DNA from: a virus
Lineage: Duplodnaviria > Heunggongvirae > Uroviricota > Caudoviricetes
Direction: 5' to 3' (one strand)
IMG/VR virus record: IMGVR_UViG_2541047879_000004
Coordinates: 1-52,210 of that record
DNA length: 52,210 bases
Part shown: piece by piece, positions 4,363-18,761 of the stretch
How positions within the stretch are numbered: the first letter of the stretch is position 1
How the letters are laid out: each line of letters starts with the position of its first letter
Notes under the pieces: generated by a model
What the model was told of the DNA's origin: nothing
Database searches by the model: none
What the model saw: only the letters and a program-made list of their open reading frames with translations
Program-made: the position numbers and the translations under genes

Positions 4363-4930
4363 TATCGCGTCCTCAACAATGAATTTTGTGATGCGGTGCC
4401 TGGTGCCTCCAGGTGACGTTAACCAGTTAACAATTAACGCCGGATACAGAGAATCCACCCATAACACTGTTTTTGGTTTTAACTGTTCCGCGTGCGCTCA
4501 GCCGCATTCACCACATCACAAAATTCACTTTAAAAAGGGCGGCATAGCAGTCACGGAGTAAAACTGATACCGCCAAACGTCACCAGAAAATTGATAACAG
4601 AGGGCGTTGCAGCGGGGTTGTCACTTAAGCGTATGGTCAACCTGACAACCCGGTGTCCTCAACGGGGGAAGGAATAACCCCGCCATACTTACCGCCGCGC
4701 CATTTCGCGGATTGCCACAACCGGAAGCGCACGATCGACGAAAATTTAACGACAGGCTATCTATGAACCAGCTACCTCGCCGTGCGCTTTCGCGTTATGG
4801 TCTGACTTTTCAGGGAAATATCCTTTCAGTAAACTGTCAGTGCCGGATGCTCACCCGTGTCCGGCGCACGCACTCCACCTCACCCGTGGAGAACTCCTTA
4901 ATTACCAACCTTAGCTTCGTTGGTTAGCTA

Positions 4931-5756: not shown

Positions 5757-6395
5757 TTAAATATCTTGTTGAATTTTAAAGCATACGCCCAATATGCAAG
5801 ATAGATCATCCAGCATAATTGAAGGGTAGCGAGGATTCGTGGGGACTAAAAGAATATCCGGCCCTTCTATCTCCAGTTTACGAATGACAGGTGTTGTGGT
5901 CCCTTTGGGTAAGGCAAGGACAATATTTCCTGGTTGTACGGTTCGATCGGGATCAACAAAAACTGTTGAACCATTTGGGATGGAAACCCCCCCACCAGAT
6001 GTTGACATACTGTCACTCTCTAGAACAACTGCAAAGGTATTGGCCGGGATTTCTCCGACAAGCTGCACACAAGAGGTTATTGAGGAATTTTTCATATAAT
6101 CACTCCAGCTTGCTGCCTGCTGAAGTGATAGTAGCGGAACCGTTTTTATCGGCGGTAAAGATAGATCAAGCGAATCACCTGTATTTAACTCTCCTCCATT
6201 AAGAAGCCAATTTTCGTTTACTTTCAATATCTTTGCCAGTGAACTTATGTAACGCGAGGACGGCGCTCCTCCACCGTTCATCCATTGACTTACGGAGCCT
6301 TTTGATGCGCCAGTGGCATTGACAAGGTCTTTGCCTTTCAGGTTTAGCGCATGCATACGTTGGGTTATGCGTTCAGATATTGTTTGCTTGCTCAT
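5757..6395 (-). CDS. cI: CI-like phage repressor (HTH N-domain + S24 LexA-like autopeptidase C-domain)
   Basis: N-terminal HTH (GASKGSVSQWMNG), C-terminal S24-like region; divergent from cro. Confidence 0.85.
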   Translation of the reverse strand: MSKQTISERITQRMHALNLKGKDLVNATGASKGSVSQWMNGGGAPSSRYISSLAKILKVNENWLLNGGELNTGDSLDLSLPPIKTVPLLSLQQAASWSDYMKNSSITSCVQLVGEIPANTFAVVLESDSMSTSGGGVSIPNGSTVFVDPDRTVQPGNIVLALPKGTTTPVIRKLEIEGPDILLVPTNPRYPSIMLDDLSCILGVCFKIQQDI

Positions 6396-6486: not shown

Positions 6487-6729
6487 ATGAAAAAATCAGA
6501 AGTATTAGGCTATTTTGGCGGAGTTGTTAAAACAGCCGCAGCTCTAGGAACGTCAAAAACCACAGTCAGCATGTGGGGGGAAGAGGTTCCGTGGAAATGG
6601 GCGTTGCTAATTCAGGCAGTCACTGCCGGGGCGCTCAAATATGAGTTACACATACCGACGGTTGTCATTCCCGGTTCTGATCATAATCCGCCTTCTAACC
6701 AAGGGGGGATTCATGAAAATCAAGCATGA
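6487..6729 (+). CDS. cro: Cro-like HTH regulator (YdaS-like)
   Basis: 80-aa ORF from MKKSEV, ggag RBS, HTH-like GTSKTTVSMW, divergent from cI. Confidence 0.8.
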   Translation: MKKSEVLGYFGGVVKTAAALGTSKTTVSMWGEEVPWKWALLIQAVTAGALKYELHIPTVVIPGSDHNPPSNQGGIHENQA

Positions 6730-7138
6730 ACACATCCGCATGGCGATGAATGCCTGGGCGCGTCCTGATGGCGAAAAAGTTCCAGCAGCTGGAATAACCC
6801 AGGCTTATTTTGAGTTGGGTATGACGTTTCCTGAACTGTATGACGACAGCCATCCGGAAGCCTTGGCTCGCAATACCCAGAAAATTTTCCGCTGGGTAGA
6901 GAAAGACACCCCTGATGCAGTTGAAAAAATTCAGGCGTTGTTACCAGCGATCGAAAAGGCAATGCCACCTTTGCTGGTGGCCAGAATGCGCAGCCACAGT
7001 TCAGCTTATTTTCGGGAGCTGGTGGAGACGCGGGAGCGACTGGTGAGAGACGCTGATGATTTTGTCGCAGTGGCAATCGCCGGTTTCAATCAGATGAACC
7101 GTGGTGGCCCGGCAGGAAATGCTGTGGCAGTACATTGA
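6713..7138 (+). CDS. YdaT-like protein (cII-position regulator)
   Basis: MKIKHEHIRMAMNAW... 141 aa immediately after cro with aagggggg RBS; resembles Rac prophage YdaT (recalled from memory). Confidence 0.65.
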   Translation: MKIKHEHIRMAMNAWARPDGEKVPAAGITQAYFELGMTFPELYDDSHPEALARNTQKIFRWVEKDTPDAVEKIQALLPAIEKAMPPLLVARMRSHSSAYFRELVETRERLVRDADDFVAVAIAGFNQMNRGGPAGNAVAVH

Positions 7139-7209
7139 CTGACAATAGCCATATCGAATCGCTTCCGGCAACTCGTGAGTAAAAAGATTCGGTATCAGAA
7201 GAGGTGAGT

Positions 7210-8226
7210 ATGGCTAACGCCTGGCTCAGATTATGGCATGACATGCCAAATGACCCTAAGTGGCGAACAATTGCCAGGGTGTCAGGGCAGCCAATTGCAA
7301 CAGTGATGGCAGTGTATATCCACCTCCTGGTGAGCGCGTCACGAAATGTCACGCGAGGTCACATTGATGTCACGACAGAAGATTTGGCAAGTGCGCTCGA
7401 CGTGACAGAAGAGGTAATTGATTCAATTTTGCAGACGATGCAGGGGCGGGTACTTGATGGTGATTTAATCACTGGATGGGAAAAACGCCAGGTGCTTAAA
7501 GAGGACAACGGCAATATTTCGCAAACCGCAAAATCTCCGGCAGAGCGCAAGAGGGCGCAGCGTGAGAGGGAAAGAAAGCGGGAACAAAATGGCGATTGTC
7601 ACGGCGCGTCACGAAATGTCACGCACATGTCACGACAAGTCACGACAGATAAAGATACAGATACAGAATTAAACCCCACACATAACGCGCGCATGCGCGA
7701 GAGTGCTCCAACCGGTGAGTCGCATGGTGCGCCGTTGCAGACAGCCGAACCTGAATACCTGGACGGCCTGAGCGAACCGATCGGGAAATTTTCGATGACT
7801 ACTGTCTGGCAGCCGTCGTCGGATTTTCGACAACGGGCAGCAGTGTGGGGTATGGCTCTGCCTGAGCCGGAATTTACACCTGCAGAGCTTGCCGCATTCC
7901 GGGATTACTGGATGGCGGAGGGGAAGGTTTTCACGCAGGTTCAGTGGGAGCAGAAATTTGCCCGCCACGTGCAGCACGTCAGGGCACAGGTAAAACCAGT
8001 CAGCAAGGGGGTAAGCCATGCAGCATCAGGTGGCACGGCATCACGGGCAGTTCAGGAAATCCGGGCAGCACGCGAACAGTGGGAACGTGACAACGGATTT
8101 ATCAGCAACGGAAACGGCCTGGAAGCTGTGGGAGCTTATGGGGGAGGTGTATTCGAACCGCTGGACCCAGAAGAACGGGGCCGCACCTTCGAAGCTCTGG
8201 ATTGCCCAGATTGGCGCGATGACTGA
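7210..8226 (+). CDS. Putative replication initiator / replisome organiser (O-like)
   Basis: Position after cro/cII-like genes; gene contains two arrays of GTCACG direct repeats; gaggtga RBS. Confidence 0.55.
   Translation: MANAWLRLWHDMPNDPKWRTIARVSGQPIATVMAVYIHLLVSASRNVTRGHIDVTTEDLASALDVTEEVIDSILQTMQGRVLDGDLITGWEKRQVLKEDNGNISQTAKSPAERKRAQRERERKREQNGDCHGASRNVTHMSRQVTTDKDTDTELNPTHNARMRESAPTGESHGAPLQTAEPEYLDGLSEPIGKFSMTTVWQPSSDFRQRAAVWGMALPEPEFTPAELAAFRDYWMAEGKVFTQVQWEQKFARHVQHVRAQVKPVSKGVSHAASGGTASRAVQEIRAAREQWERDNGFISNGNGLEAVGAYGGGVFEPLDPEERGRTFEALDCPDWRDD
7338..7378. repeat. Iteron array 1: four tandem ~10-bp GTCAC(G/A)-initiated repeats
   Basis: GTCACGAAAT GTCACGCGAG GTCACATTGAT GTCACGACAG. 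Confidence 0.75.
7598..7680. repeat. Iteron array 2: five tandem GTCACG repeats followed by AT-rich tract (candidate origin)
   Basis: GTCACGGCGC GTCACGAAAT GTCACGCACAT GTCACGACAA GTCACGACAG then ATAAAGATACAGATACAGAATTAAA. Confidence 0.75.
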
Positions 8227-8680
8227 ACAGCAAATCCGGCTGGTCTGCCGTCAGTGCATGGACCGCTGCCGGGCGGGTGAAACGTGGCCCCCGGACCTGG
8301 CTGAGTTTGTTGCACTGATTTCGGAGAGTGGGGCAAATCCATTTGGTCTTACGGTGGATGCAGTGATGGAAGAGTACCGGCGCTGGCGCAATGAATCCTG
8401 GCGATACGACGGGAGTGATAAATACCCGTGGCCACAGCCTGTGCTGTACCACATCTGCCTCGAAATGCGTACCAGAGGGATTGAGCGCCAGATGACGCAG
8501 GGTGAGTTAAAACGACTTGCAGAACGGCAACTGACGAAATGGGCAAAGCATGTTGGTAACGGGATGAGTGTTCCGCCAGTGCGACGACAACTGGAAGGGG
8601 CGAAACACCCGCAAGGGCCAACGCCAATTGAACGGCTGAAACAGGAATACGAACGCCGGAAGGCAGCTGGTTTTATTTGA
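8219..8680 (+). CDS. Hypothetical replication-module protein (P-position)
   Basis: 154-aa ORF from MTEQQIRL overlapping upstream stop; no Walker motif seen. Confidence 0.4.
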   Translation: MTEQQIRLVCRQCMDRCRAGETWPPDLAEFVALISESGANPFGLTVDAVMEEYRRWRNESWRYDGSDKYPWPQPVLYHICLEMRTRGIERQMTQGELKRLAERQLTKWAKHVGNGMSVPPVRRQLEGAKHPQGPTPIERLKQEYERRKAAGFI

Positions 8681-12370: not shown

Positions 12371-12661
12371 CCTGGCCTGAAGCATTAACAACGGTAGGAA
12401 TTGCGATGGCGGTGACGCTGATGGTGTATTCGATTTGCCGCTGGGGATAAAAACGGTTTGCGGGAAAAGGAGAGTTAAGTAGAATTGCTGCGGGTGCTTG
12501 AGGCTATCTGTCTCAGGCATGAACACCAAAAGGCAGATAGAGAAAAGCCCCAGTTAACATTACGCGTCCGGCAAGACGCTTAACATTAATCTGAGGCCAT
12601 ATCTATGCTCTACACACGTAGGTTAGCCTCTTACGTGCCGAAAGGCAAGGAGAAGCAGGCT

Positions 12662-12817
12662 ATGAAGCAGCAAAAGGCGATGCTAATCGCCCTGATCGTC
12701 ATCTGTTTAACCGTCATTGTGACGGCACTGGTAACGAGGAAAGACCTCTGCGAGGTACGAATCCGAACCGGCCAGACGGAGGTCGCTGTCTTCACAGCTT
12801 ACGAACCTGAGGAGTAA
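12662..12817 (+). CDS. hok: Hok/Gef-family type I toxin (51 aa membrane peptide)
   Basis: MKQQKAMLIALIVICLTVIVTALVTRKDLCEVRIRTGQTEVAVFTAYEPEE: single TM helix plus conserved LCE(V/I)R motif; in-frame upstream extension (12605) is mok-like. Confidence 0.85.
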   Translation: MKQQKAMLIALIVICLTVIVTALVTRKDLCEVRIRTGQTEVAVFTAYEPEE

Positions 12818-18276: not shown

Positions 18277-18352
18277 GGCCCTTTAGCTCAGTGGTGAGAG
18301 CGAGCGACTCATAATCGCCAGGTCGCTGGTTCAAATCCAGCAAGGGCCACCA
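18277..18352 (+). tRNA. tRNA with CAU anticodon (Met or Ile2)
   Basis: Cloverleaf: acceptor GGCCCTT/AAGGGCC, anticodon loop cuCAUaa, TTCAAAT T-loop, CCA end. Confidence 0.8.
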
Positions 18353-18359
18353 TCACATA

Positions 18360-18436
18360 CCGCCATTAGCTCATCAGGAAAGAGCGCCAGCCTTCGAAGC
18401 TGGTTGCGCGGGGTTCAAGTCCCCGATGGCGGTCCA
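18360..18436 (+). tRNA. tRNA-Arg (anticodon UCG)
   Basis: Acceptor CCGCCAT/ATGGCGG, anticodon loop cuUCGaa, TTCAAGT T-loop, CCA end. Confidence 0.75.
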
Positions 18437-18449
18437 TTATCTGCATCAT

Positions 18450-18526
18450 GCGTTGTTAGCTCAGCCGGACAGAGCAATTGCCTTCTAAGCAATCGGTCAC
18501 TGGTTCGAATCCAGTACAACGCGCCA
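18450..18526 (+). tRNA. tRNA-Arg (anticodon UCU)
   Basis: Acceptor GCGTTGT/ACAACGC, anticodon loop cuUCUaa, TTCGAAT T-loop, CCA end. Confidence 0.8.
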
Positions 18527-18761
18527 CACTTATTTTCCCTGGCTCGCTTTTGCGGGCTTTTTTTTAAATGTCTCACAATTCAGGCGGTTGACTGTTGTCT
18601 GGTTTGCGGGGAGTTTGTTAAAAGAAACTGGCATGGTGAATCCCCCTGTGCGGAGGGGCAATCAGCGAGTAGGTATATGGGATAATCGCGGATTCAGGTG
18701 CTGGTACTGAATTCACCGGGAGGCACCCGGCACCATGCAATGGCACATAGCGCCACTCTCC

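Follow-up and report, generated by a model that had tools for sequence, protein, structure and literature searches.

The 52,210-nucleotide stretch of DNA analysed here (positions 1 to 52,210 of the IMG/VR virus record IMGVR_UViG_2541047879_000004; hereafter the window) carries, within the open reading frame (ORF) of a replication initiator, two arrays of the hexamer GTCACG and a tract of AT-rich hexanucleotide repeats. Together these probably constitute the vegetative replication origin of a lambdoid prophage, situated inside its own initiator gene. Four lines of comparison support this reading: the arrays recur in homologous genes, with the core sequence changing in both arrays together; synonymous codon positions are frozen precisely where the repeats lie; the second array is followed in every iteron class by a conserved AT-rich purine tract; and the joint between exchangeable N- and C-terminal modules of the gene sits at that tract. 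Binding by the initiator and firing of the origin are inferred.

Repeat arrays and the AT-rich tract

A motif search located the sites that a preliminary description of this DNA had given as four and five GTCACG units about 260 bp apart in one ORF. In array 1, GTCACG begins at 7338, 7348 and 7369, with a one-mismatch unit, GTCACA, at 7358, so that the units are spaced 10, 10 and 11 bp apart; in array 2 it begins at 7598, 7608, 7618, 7629 and 7639, with spacings of 10, 10, 11 and 10 bp. The start-to-start distance between the two arrays is 260 bp. The periodicity proposed for the repeats was borne out by the same search, the unit (T)GTCACG recurring every 10–11 bp in both arrays, which places the sites on one face of the helix. 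Nine exact copies of GTCACG fall within 307 bp, where 0.165 would be expected (Poisson P(≥9) = 2e-13); the window as a whole has 28 sites for 24.8 expected, showing no enrichment over 52 kb. Tandem Repeats Finder describes array 2 as 5.0 copies of period 10 with the consensus TGTCACGACA, and a 19-bp stretch, GCGTCACGAAATGTCACGC, is identical between the two arrays. Both arrays and the AT-rich tract are contained in the ORF at 7210–8226.

One further copy, absent from the preliminary description, lies in the inverted orientation 32 bp past the last unit of array 1. A second local minimum of GC content (0.375) is found right after it, at 7400–7439, where the gene encodes a putative recognition helix (EEVIDSIL). 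Third bases in this segment show some preference for A or T in homologues, with the codon for I73 being ATT or GTT in 22 of 24.

The tract that follows array 2 is detected by Tandem Repeats Finder as a 6-bp repeat at 7645–7667 (period 6, 3.8 copies). Over 7645–7680, the 36 nucleotides (nt) past array 2, the GC content is 0.33 compared with 0.55 for the gene, and 64% of the top strand is purine; values of 0.33–0.375 were obtained for the GC content of the tract. The AT-rich tract reported earlier is thus present, and its end at 7680 was rightly placed. The lambda-like succession of iterons and AT-rich DNA that had been suggested is found at array 2 only.

Table 1. Features of the candidate origin and of the genes that surround it
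Feature	Position in window	Strand	Description
Array 1, head-to-tail	7337–7374	+	Four units: CGTCACG, TGTCACG, GGTCACA, TGTCACG (motif search)
Inverted iteron copy	7401–7407	−	TGTCACG on the − strand; exact GTCACG 7401–7406 (motif search)
Array 2, head-to-tail, origin-proximal	7597–7644	+	Five units (motif search and tandem repeat)
AT/purine-rich hexanucleotide-repeat tract, candidate DNA-unwinding element	7645–7675	+	ACAGAT AAAGAT ACAGAT ACAGAA TTAAA
Replication initiator gene	7210–8226	+	338 residues; ORF; homologues likewise begin MAN...
Initiator domains			Winged helix, residues 1–~95; basic helix, 110–126; disordered linker, ~127–185; DnaT-like, ~187–262
Lambda-P-like helicase-loader gene	8219–8680	+	153 residues; PF06992, E 1.3e-15; PHROG 'P-like helicase loader', E 1e-62

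Conservation across the initiator family

A search with the N-terminal 153 residues of the initiator returned 558 relatives, and 66 loci from one-genome-per-species contigs together with 80 of at least 592 viral-contig loci provided 63 analysable genes. They come mostly from Proteobacteria, the sources being Enterobacterales, Pseudomonas, Bordetella, Acidovorax, Aquitalea, Stenotrophomonas, Chromobacterium, Gilvimarinus, Pseudothauera, sphingomonads, other Burkholderiales and several metagenome-assembled genomes. Periodic repeats are found in these genes at the same two places, gene nt ~129–165 and ~335–500, with units spaced by 10 bp (n = 183) or 11 bp (n = 42). The layout noted earlier in the window, of two arrays built on a repeat different from that of lambda, therefore recurs at the same gene positions in homologues.

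The core hexamer is lineage-specific but is common to both arrays of a gene. It is GTCACG at 27 loci, CGAACG(C) at 18 and GTAACG at 6, with GTGACG and GCAACG each represented by 1 locus, and both arrays are present in 43 of the 53 classified genes by a strict criterion. Concordance between the arrays was assessed by comparing the top periodic 5-mer of nt 100–260 with that of nt 300–520, only GC-containing k-mers being considered because an AGATA microsatellite contaminated the unrestricted version. The two regions agree in 46 of the 63 genes, a count that is inflated by relatedness; when genes are paired at random the figure is 22.4 ± 3.4 (at most 35 in 2000 trials). The independent events are about five switches of specificity, with both arrays changing together each time. 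The arrays are co-inherited with the N-terminal domain (N-domain) of the initiator.

The number of units is variable and their orientation is not fixed. Array 2 has 2–5 units in homologues, at the same place, and GTGAC, the equivalent of the inverted copy, is found at gene position 193 in most GTCACG-class homologues. Arrays grow and shrink in frame at both places by 21 bp, corresponding to seven residues or two units: most Escherichia coli variants have six units in array 1, with a 21-bp insert that encodes TCHGVSL, and the E. coli genes have two more array 2 units than their non-E. coli relatives. The two arrays lie in opposite orientation in two divergent genes, from Paraburkholderia (L064; arrays at gene nt 157–167 and 428–468) and Lysobacter (L065; gene nt 66–113 and 383–434, with six GTCAC units that encode CVTSVTSVTNVT), in both of which array 1 is found elsewhere within the N-domain coding sequence. 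These opposite orientations, together with the conserved inverted copy in the window, indicate a double-stranded DNA site. The module is present in 2096 of 5426 complete E. coli genomes (about 39%), including O157 and O145 strains, in up to four copies each.

Two genes of the family, from Serratia and Pantoea (L047 and L060), are without GTCAC-type arrays and carry instead a periodic CTACG/ACTACG repeat at gene nt ~330–480. The segment right after their N-domain resembles, by eye, a GIY-YIG motif (..YVYYVAT..VGISRNPWAR..), and may represent a different origin or an inserted nuclease domain.

Sequence constraint at the arrays was examined in a codon alignment of 24 GTCACG-class genes (57–99% amino-acid identity, GC content 0.42–0.68), with entropy measured at conserved residues whose codons are at least fourfold degenerate. 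Inside the repeats these residues show 1.6 codons and 0.20 bits, compared with 4.3 codons and 1.84 bits outside (Mann-Whitney p = 1.7e-6). In array 1, V47 is GTC, T48 is ACG, G50 is GGT and V54 is GTC in all 24 genes; in array 2, H131 is CAC (22/22), S141 is TCA and V144 is GTC (24/24 for both); and in the inverted copy V65 is GTG (20/20). In a map of third-base entropy the frozen sites, Trp and Met codons aside, are confined to the two arrays and the AT tract. A single hexamer is read in all three frames, as SR, VT and G/CH, a pattern that constraint on the peptide could not generate, and in protein alignments the array-encoded peptides, A43-SRNVTRGH..VT-55 and C/GH..SRNVT, are invariant or nearly so. 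Because the synonymous sites are frozen and the hexamer is used in three frames, selection acts on the DNA, the invariant peptides being a by-product.

The AT-rich tract is conserved in a similar way. Hexamer repeats of the type (C)AGATAAAGATAAAGA or CAGATACAGATA, also written (C)AGATAAAGATA or CAGATAAAGATAAAGA, occur within a few bases 3' of array 2 in every iteron class. In homologues the tract has a mean GC content of 0.33, compared with 0.55 for the genes, and a top strand that is 73% purine; at 42 of 49 loci its GC content is at least 0.10 below that of the gene (Wilcoxon p = 2e-9). It retains its GAT and AAA codons even where the host GC content is 0.60–0.68, and the number of repeats varies among E. 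coli prophages, from one to four copies of DKDT.

The same tract marks a mosaic joint. In megablast comparisons with phage genomes, matches to the initiator gene break at the tract, at window positions 7647–7667. The segment 7100–7667, which runs from the end of the preceding gene through the N-domain and both arrays to the tract, is 96.5–99.1% identical to phages Evi, Tritos and others, whose C-termini differ, and the N-terminal half with both arrays is 99% identical to Evi and Tritos. On the other side, 7647–8300 is 86–89% identical to the initiators of phage Rac-SA53 (ydaU) and of the PPompW prophages, whose N-domains are unrelated. Many matches to the N-module in E. coli genomes likewise end at window position 7667. 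Other initiators have repeats of their own just 5' of the same '...AAAGAT..TAAACCCCACACATA...' junction: GTGTTCAAAC / GTGTTTGAAC at gene nt 420–470 of Rac-SA53 ydaU (L001), and six copies of ACCCAA at gene nt 290–480 of the PPompW initiator (L003), in each case 5' of the shared AT-rich junction. These are probably the iterons of those initiators. The N-domain, arrays and AT tract are thus swapped as a unit against different C-terminal, loader-side modules, in keeping with the co-variation of N-domain and iterons in lambda O.

A perfect 12-bp GC-rich palindrome, CGCGCATGCGCG, is found at 7688–7699, ~12 bp past the AT tract. It belongs to the C-terminal module, where it encodes the peptide NARMRE, and Rac-SA53 and PPompW retain it only in imperfect form. 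To the right of the AT-rich region of the lambda ori there is likewise an inverted repeat.

The initiator protein and its genomic setting

The 338-residue protein matches PHROG 'replication initiation protein' families (E 1e-110). Its C-terminal domain matches the Pfam DnaT family (PF17948, E 3.7e-17) and the NCBIfam DnaT model (E 5.9e-27, under the equivalog cutoff), and in an AlphaFold (AF2) model it is superimposed by Foldseek on residues 84–153 of DnaT in the complex with single-stranded DNA (4ou6), with 57% identity and a root-mean-square deviation of 1.3 Å. The N-terminal 125 residues align across the full Phage_rep_org_N and TIGR01714 profiles at a sub-threshold level (E about 0.01), scoring 16.5 bits against a cutoff of 23.3 for PF09681 (E 0.0085) and 15.6 against 49.8 for TIGR01714. 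Close relatives are labelled 'phage replisome organizer' by NCBI, and any kinship of the N-domain with the replisome-organiser family can be no more than a distant one. Pfam and PHROG scans gave no match of the protein to the lambda O family, so that the initiator is 'O-like' by role and gene order and not by homology. The O-like label given earlier to the ORF accordingly needs this correction, while the two-array layout and the frozen synonymous sites support the reading of a candidate lambda-like ori. A profile search of solved structures with the initiator family found nothing, and Foldseek returned only non-significant matches of the N-domain to winged-helix proteins of the MarR/CRP type.

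In the AF2 model, which was built from a 58-sequence alignment, the N-domain has a predicted local distance difference test (pLDDT) score of 84–95. Array 1 encodes the loop A43-SRNVTRGHIDVT-55, which lies between helix 29–45 and a helix-turn-helix (helices 56–63 and 67–77) and at which the pLDDT dips. The inverted copy encodes D64-V65-T66, with which the putative recognition helix begins. Array 2 encodes residues 130–145, CHGASRNVTHMSRQVT, and together with the AT tract corresponds to the predicted disordered linker (pLDDT <50). The model thus places both arrays where the protein structure is permissive, array 1 in a loop and array 2 in a disordered linker, and for this reason we consider that the requirement for the DNA site dictates the peptides ASRNVTRGH..VT and CH..SRNVT. 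A comparison of class consensus sequences for core-recognising residues showed the helix-turn-helix to be similar between iteron classes.

The region is the early-right operon of a lambdoid prophage. A cI-like repressor gene (5757–6395, − strand) is followed by a cro-like ORF, a cII-like/YdaT-like gene (6641–7138), the initiator and the P-like loader. The start of the loader is most likely the ATG at 8219, which overlaps the initiator stop by 8 nt (ATGACTGA), because the same 8-nt overlap is found in the annotated ydaU/ydaV pair of Rac-SA53; the start given in a mechanical ORF list (8018) is probably 67 codons too early. Translation of the loader is probably coupled to that of the initiator by way of this overlap.

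No DnaA box with up to one mismatch occurs in 7000–8300, and a DnaA-dependent origin architecture is therefore unsupported. Over the whole window, DnaA-box-like 9-mers (TTATCCACA, up to one mismatch) number 21, compared with 10.7 ± 3.3 in shuffled sequence, and none of 100 shuffles reached 21. An Rfam scan found no RNA family in the origin region. A scan for promoters and terminators gave weak consensus matches only, which we take as chance; this applies also to a promoter-like match on the − strand that consists of the iterons themselves and to hairpins over the GC-rich palindrome, at 7674–7702.

Elsewhere in the window, Rfam and ARAGORN identify a DicF antisense RNA, a sok antitoxin RNA, three tRNAs (Met-CAT, Arg-TCG and Arg-TCT) and the small RNA STnc100, these RNA genes being found, in all, at 4537–4588 (−), 12492–12667 (+), 18277–18526 (+) and 18602–18791 (+). 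The tRNA cluster is followed by an ORF of 622 residues (19398–21266), with no + strand ORF of 80 residues or more between them, a layout that resembles the late region of Shiga toxin (Stx) phages without the toxin genes.

Interpretation and comparison with known origins

Because the AT tract adjoins array 2 and not array 1, array 2 and the tract correspond to the core of iterons plus DNA-unwinding element (DUE) seen in lambda and SPP1, with array 1 separate. The best reading, drawn by analogy, is that the core origin comprises array 2 and the AT tract, as in the lambda ori-in-O, and we infer that array 1 would be an accessory initiator-binding array.

Several observations weigh against this interpretation. 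There is no marked AT tract 3' of array 1, the 36 nt that follow it having a GC content of 0.53 compared with 0.56 for the gene. About 9–12 divergent members of the family, mostly alphaproteobacterial (among them L041, L055, L056, L062, L052 and L061), have array 2 with no detectable array 1; since these carry array 2 alone, array 1 is not universally required. The arrays are 189 to 350 bp apart in different genes, without conservation of helical phase, and looping between them therefore gains no specific support. The likeness of the N-domain to replisome organisers stays under the family thresholds. Finally, differences between iteron classes in the helix-turn-helix are confounded with the inverted iteron, which itself encodes D64-V65-T66, and no recognition residues were assigned.

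Under an alternative reading, array 2 and the AT tract would be the origin but array 1 a negative control element, acting by titration, by handcuffing, or by blocking transcription and translation of the initiator gene. Control by two arrays is well established in iteron plasmids, with handcuffing by a second array in, for example, P1 (incA) and F. Array 1 is separate and without an adjacent AT tract, it is dispensable in some lineages, its units vary from 4 to 6 among E. coli prophages, and, since it lies in the initiator coding sequence, an occupied array would obstruct RNA polymerase. We nevertheless consider this alternative unlikely. Limitation of copy number would be of little gain to a lytic burst, and iteron copies are lacking from the early promoter region and from the rest of the 52-kb window; the sequence itself holds nothing that distinguishes a positive from a negative role.

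That the repeats bind some other protein, either a host factor or a cII-like or cro-like regulator, and serve a regulatory and not a replicative function, is very improbable. The position of the arrays, downstream of early regulatory genes, would suit such a function, but the core hexamer tracks the lineage of the initiator across distant hosts, whereas the upstream regulators differ among phages that share the module, Tritos having a Rha-type gene where the window has its cII/YdaT-like gene. A host factor would not switch specificity five times, and the placing of iterons and then an AT tract in an inter-domain linker fits origins. The near-invariance of ASRNVTRGH..VT and CH..SRNVT could also be read as selection for a repeated peptide (SRNVT...), or as an mRNA function, with no DNA site at all, but this can scarcely be credited when the frozen synonymous positions are confined to the hexamers, one hexamer gives different dipeptides in three reading frames, the spacing equals one helical turn, inverted copies and inverted arrays exist that are not equivalent in RNA or protein, and the encoded loop and disordered linker tolerate insertions of seven residues.

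Returning to the origin inside the initiator gene, its mode of action can be envisaged by analogy with lambda O and its ori (PMC7466680, PMC6022878) and with SPP1 G38P and oriL (PMC5737612). Derepression would lead to rightward early transcription and production of the initiator, whose N-terminal winged-helix domain would bind each unit. The five units of array 2 could nucleate an oligomeric complex beside the AT tract, and the tract would melt in negatively supercoiled DNA, as happens at lambda ori and at oriL of SPP1. The DnaT-like C-terminal domain would then bind the exposed single strand, the P-like loader, or both, and the loader would deliver host DnaB. Array 1, with its four direct units and one inverted unit, would be bound by the same protein in an accessory role, most likely bridging or looping to array 2 and so raising the local initiator concentration and torsional stress.

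A more general proposal is offered tentatively. The window may exemplify a widespread bipartite class of phage origin, in which the initiator bridges two arrays in its own gene and the site dictates an invariant loop of the protein that reads it. At least five core specificities would have arisen by concerted change of about ten sites and the protein, and the (AGATAA)n tract would serve all the specificities as a sequence-specific element for unwinding or single-strand binding, and also as the recombination point for loader-recruiting C-terminal domains.

The specificity classes would allow prediction of trans-activation, or of competition between initiators, among co-resident prophages, and two periodic arrays followed by an AGATAA-type tract provide a rule for finding origins in this initiator family. 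The module is also a natural case in which a DNA-binding-site code overrides codon choice, in hosts that range from 42% to 68% GC, and arrays 1 and 2 offer defined, recodable targets for study of the role of a second iteron array in a lytic replicon. The literature that was searched contains no description of this origin, although its coverage was incomplete and this absence is no proof; the paper on Eru-type Stx phage replication regions makes no mention of iterons or origins (PMC8044961).

An origin inside the initiator gene is a classical principle, and by analogy the one described here would work functionally like the lambda ori-in-O and the SPP1 oriL in gene 38. What sets it apart from these are its short, asymmetric, head-to-tail sites, the two arrays in one gene, a hexamer-repeat tract found across specificity classes and the DnaT-like C-terminal domain. 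As in lambda, and in the Stx phages 933W and P27, the origin lies within the initiator gene, where the DNA-binding N-domain and a C-terminal recruitment domain join; an iteron array, here array 2, is followed directly by an AT-rich unwinding tract; the next gene is a helicase loader of the P family; and the N-domain and iterons are exchanged as one module. Iteron number also varies in frame between related Stx phages, 4 compared with 6 (PMC7466680). The lambda iterons, however, are inverted repeats of 18–19 bp (PMC6022878), in a single array of 4–6 that are each bound by an O dimer (PMC6022878, PMC7466680), whereas the sites in the window have asymmetric cores of 6–7 bp, in head-to-tail units of 10–11 bp, and are distributed over two arrays of four and five units, 260 bp apart, one of them within the coding sequence for the DNA-binding domain. 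The initiator has no detectable homology to O and its C-terminal domain is instead DnaT-like, and the AT tract takes the form of a conserved (AGATAA/AGATAC)n hexamer repeat.

In SPP1, the oriL iterons (AB boxes) and an adjacent AT-rich DUE are embedded in gene 38, whose product G38P has no AAA+ domain (PMC5737612). Here too the repeats and candidate DUE lie in the gene for the putative organiser, which likewise has no AAA+ domain and whose N-domain is weakly similar, over its full length and at a sub-threshold level, to the N-terminal family of replisome organisers. G38P also binds two separate regions, oriL and oriR, but these are far apart, whereas both arrays are here in one gene. The loader is P-like and not G39P, the hosts are mainly Proteobacteria and the repeat units differ.

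Iteron plasmids (P1 oriR/incA, F, RK2 and R6K) offer a parallel in the helically phased direct repeats that they carry beside an AT-rich DUE, together with a second array for the same initiator that serves copy control by handcuffing. Plasmid Rep proteins have tandem winged-helix domains, WH1-WH2, and their iterons, of 17–22 bp, form arrays that flank the rep gene and do not lie inside it; in the window, by contrast, the units are 10–11 bp and the arrays are internal to the initiator gene. With E. coli DnaT, which works with PriA and PriB, the initiator has only the C-terminal domain in common, and that domain is here fused to a putative origin-binding domain and paired with a P-like loader.

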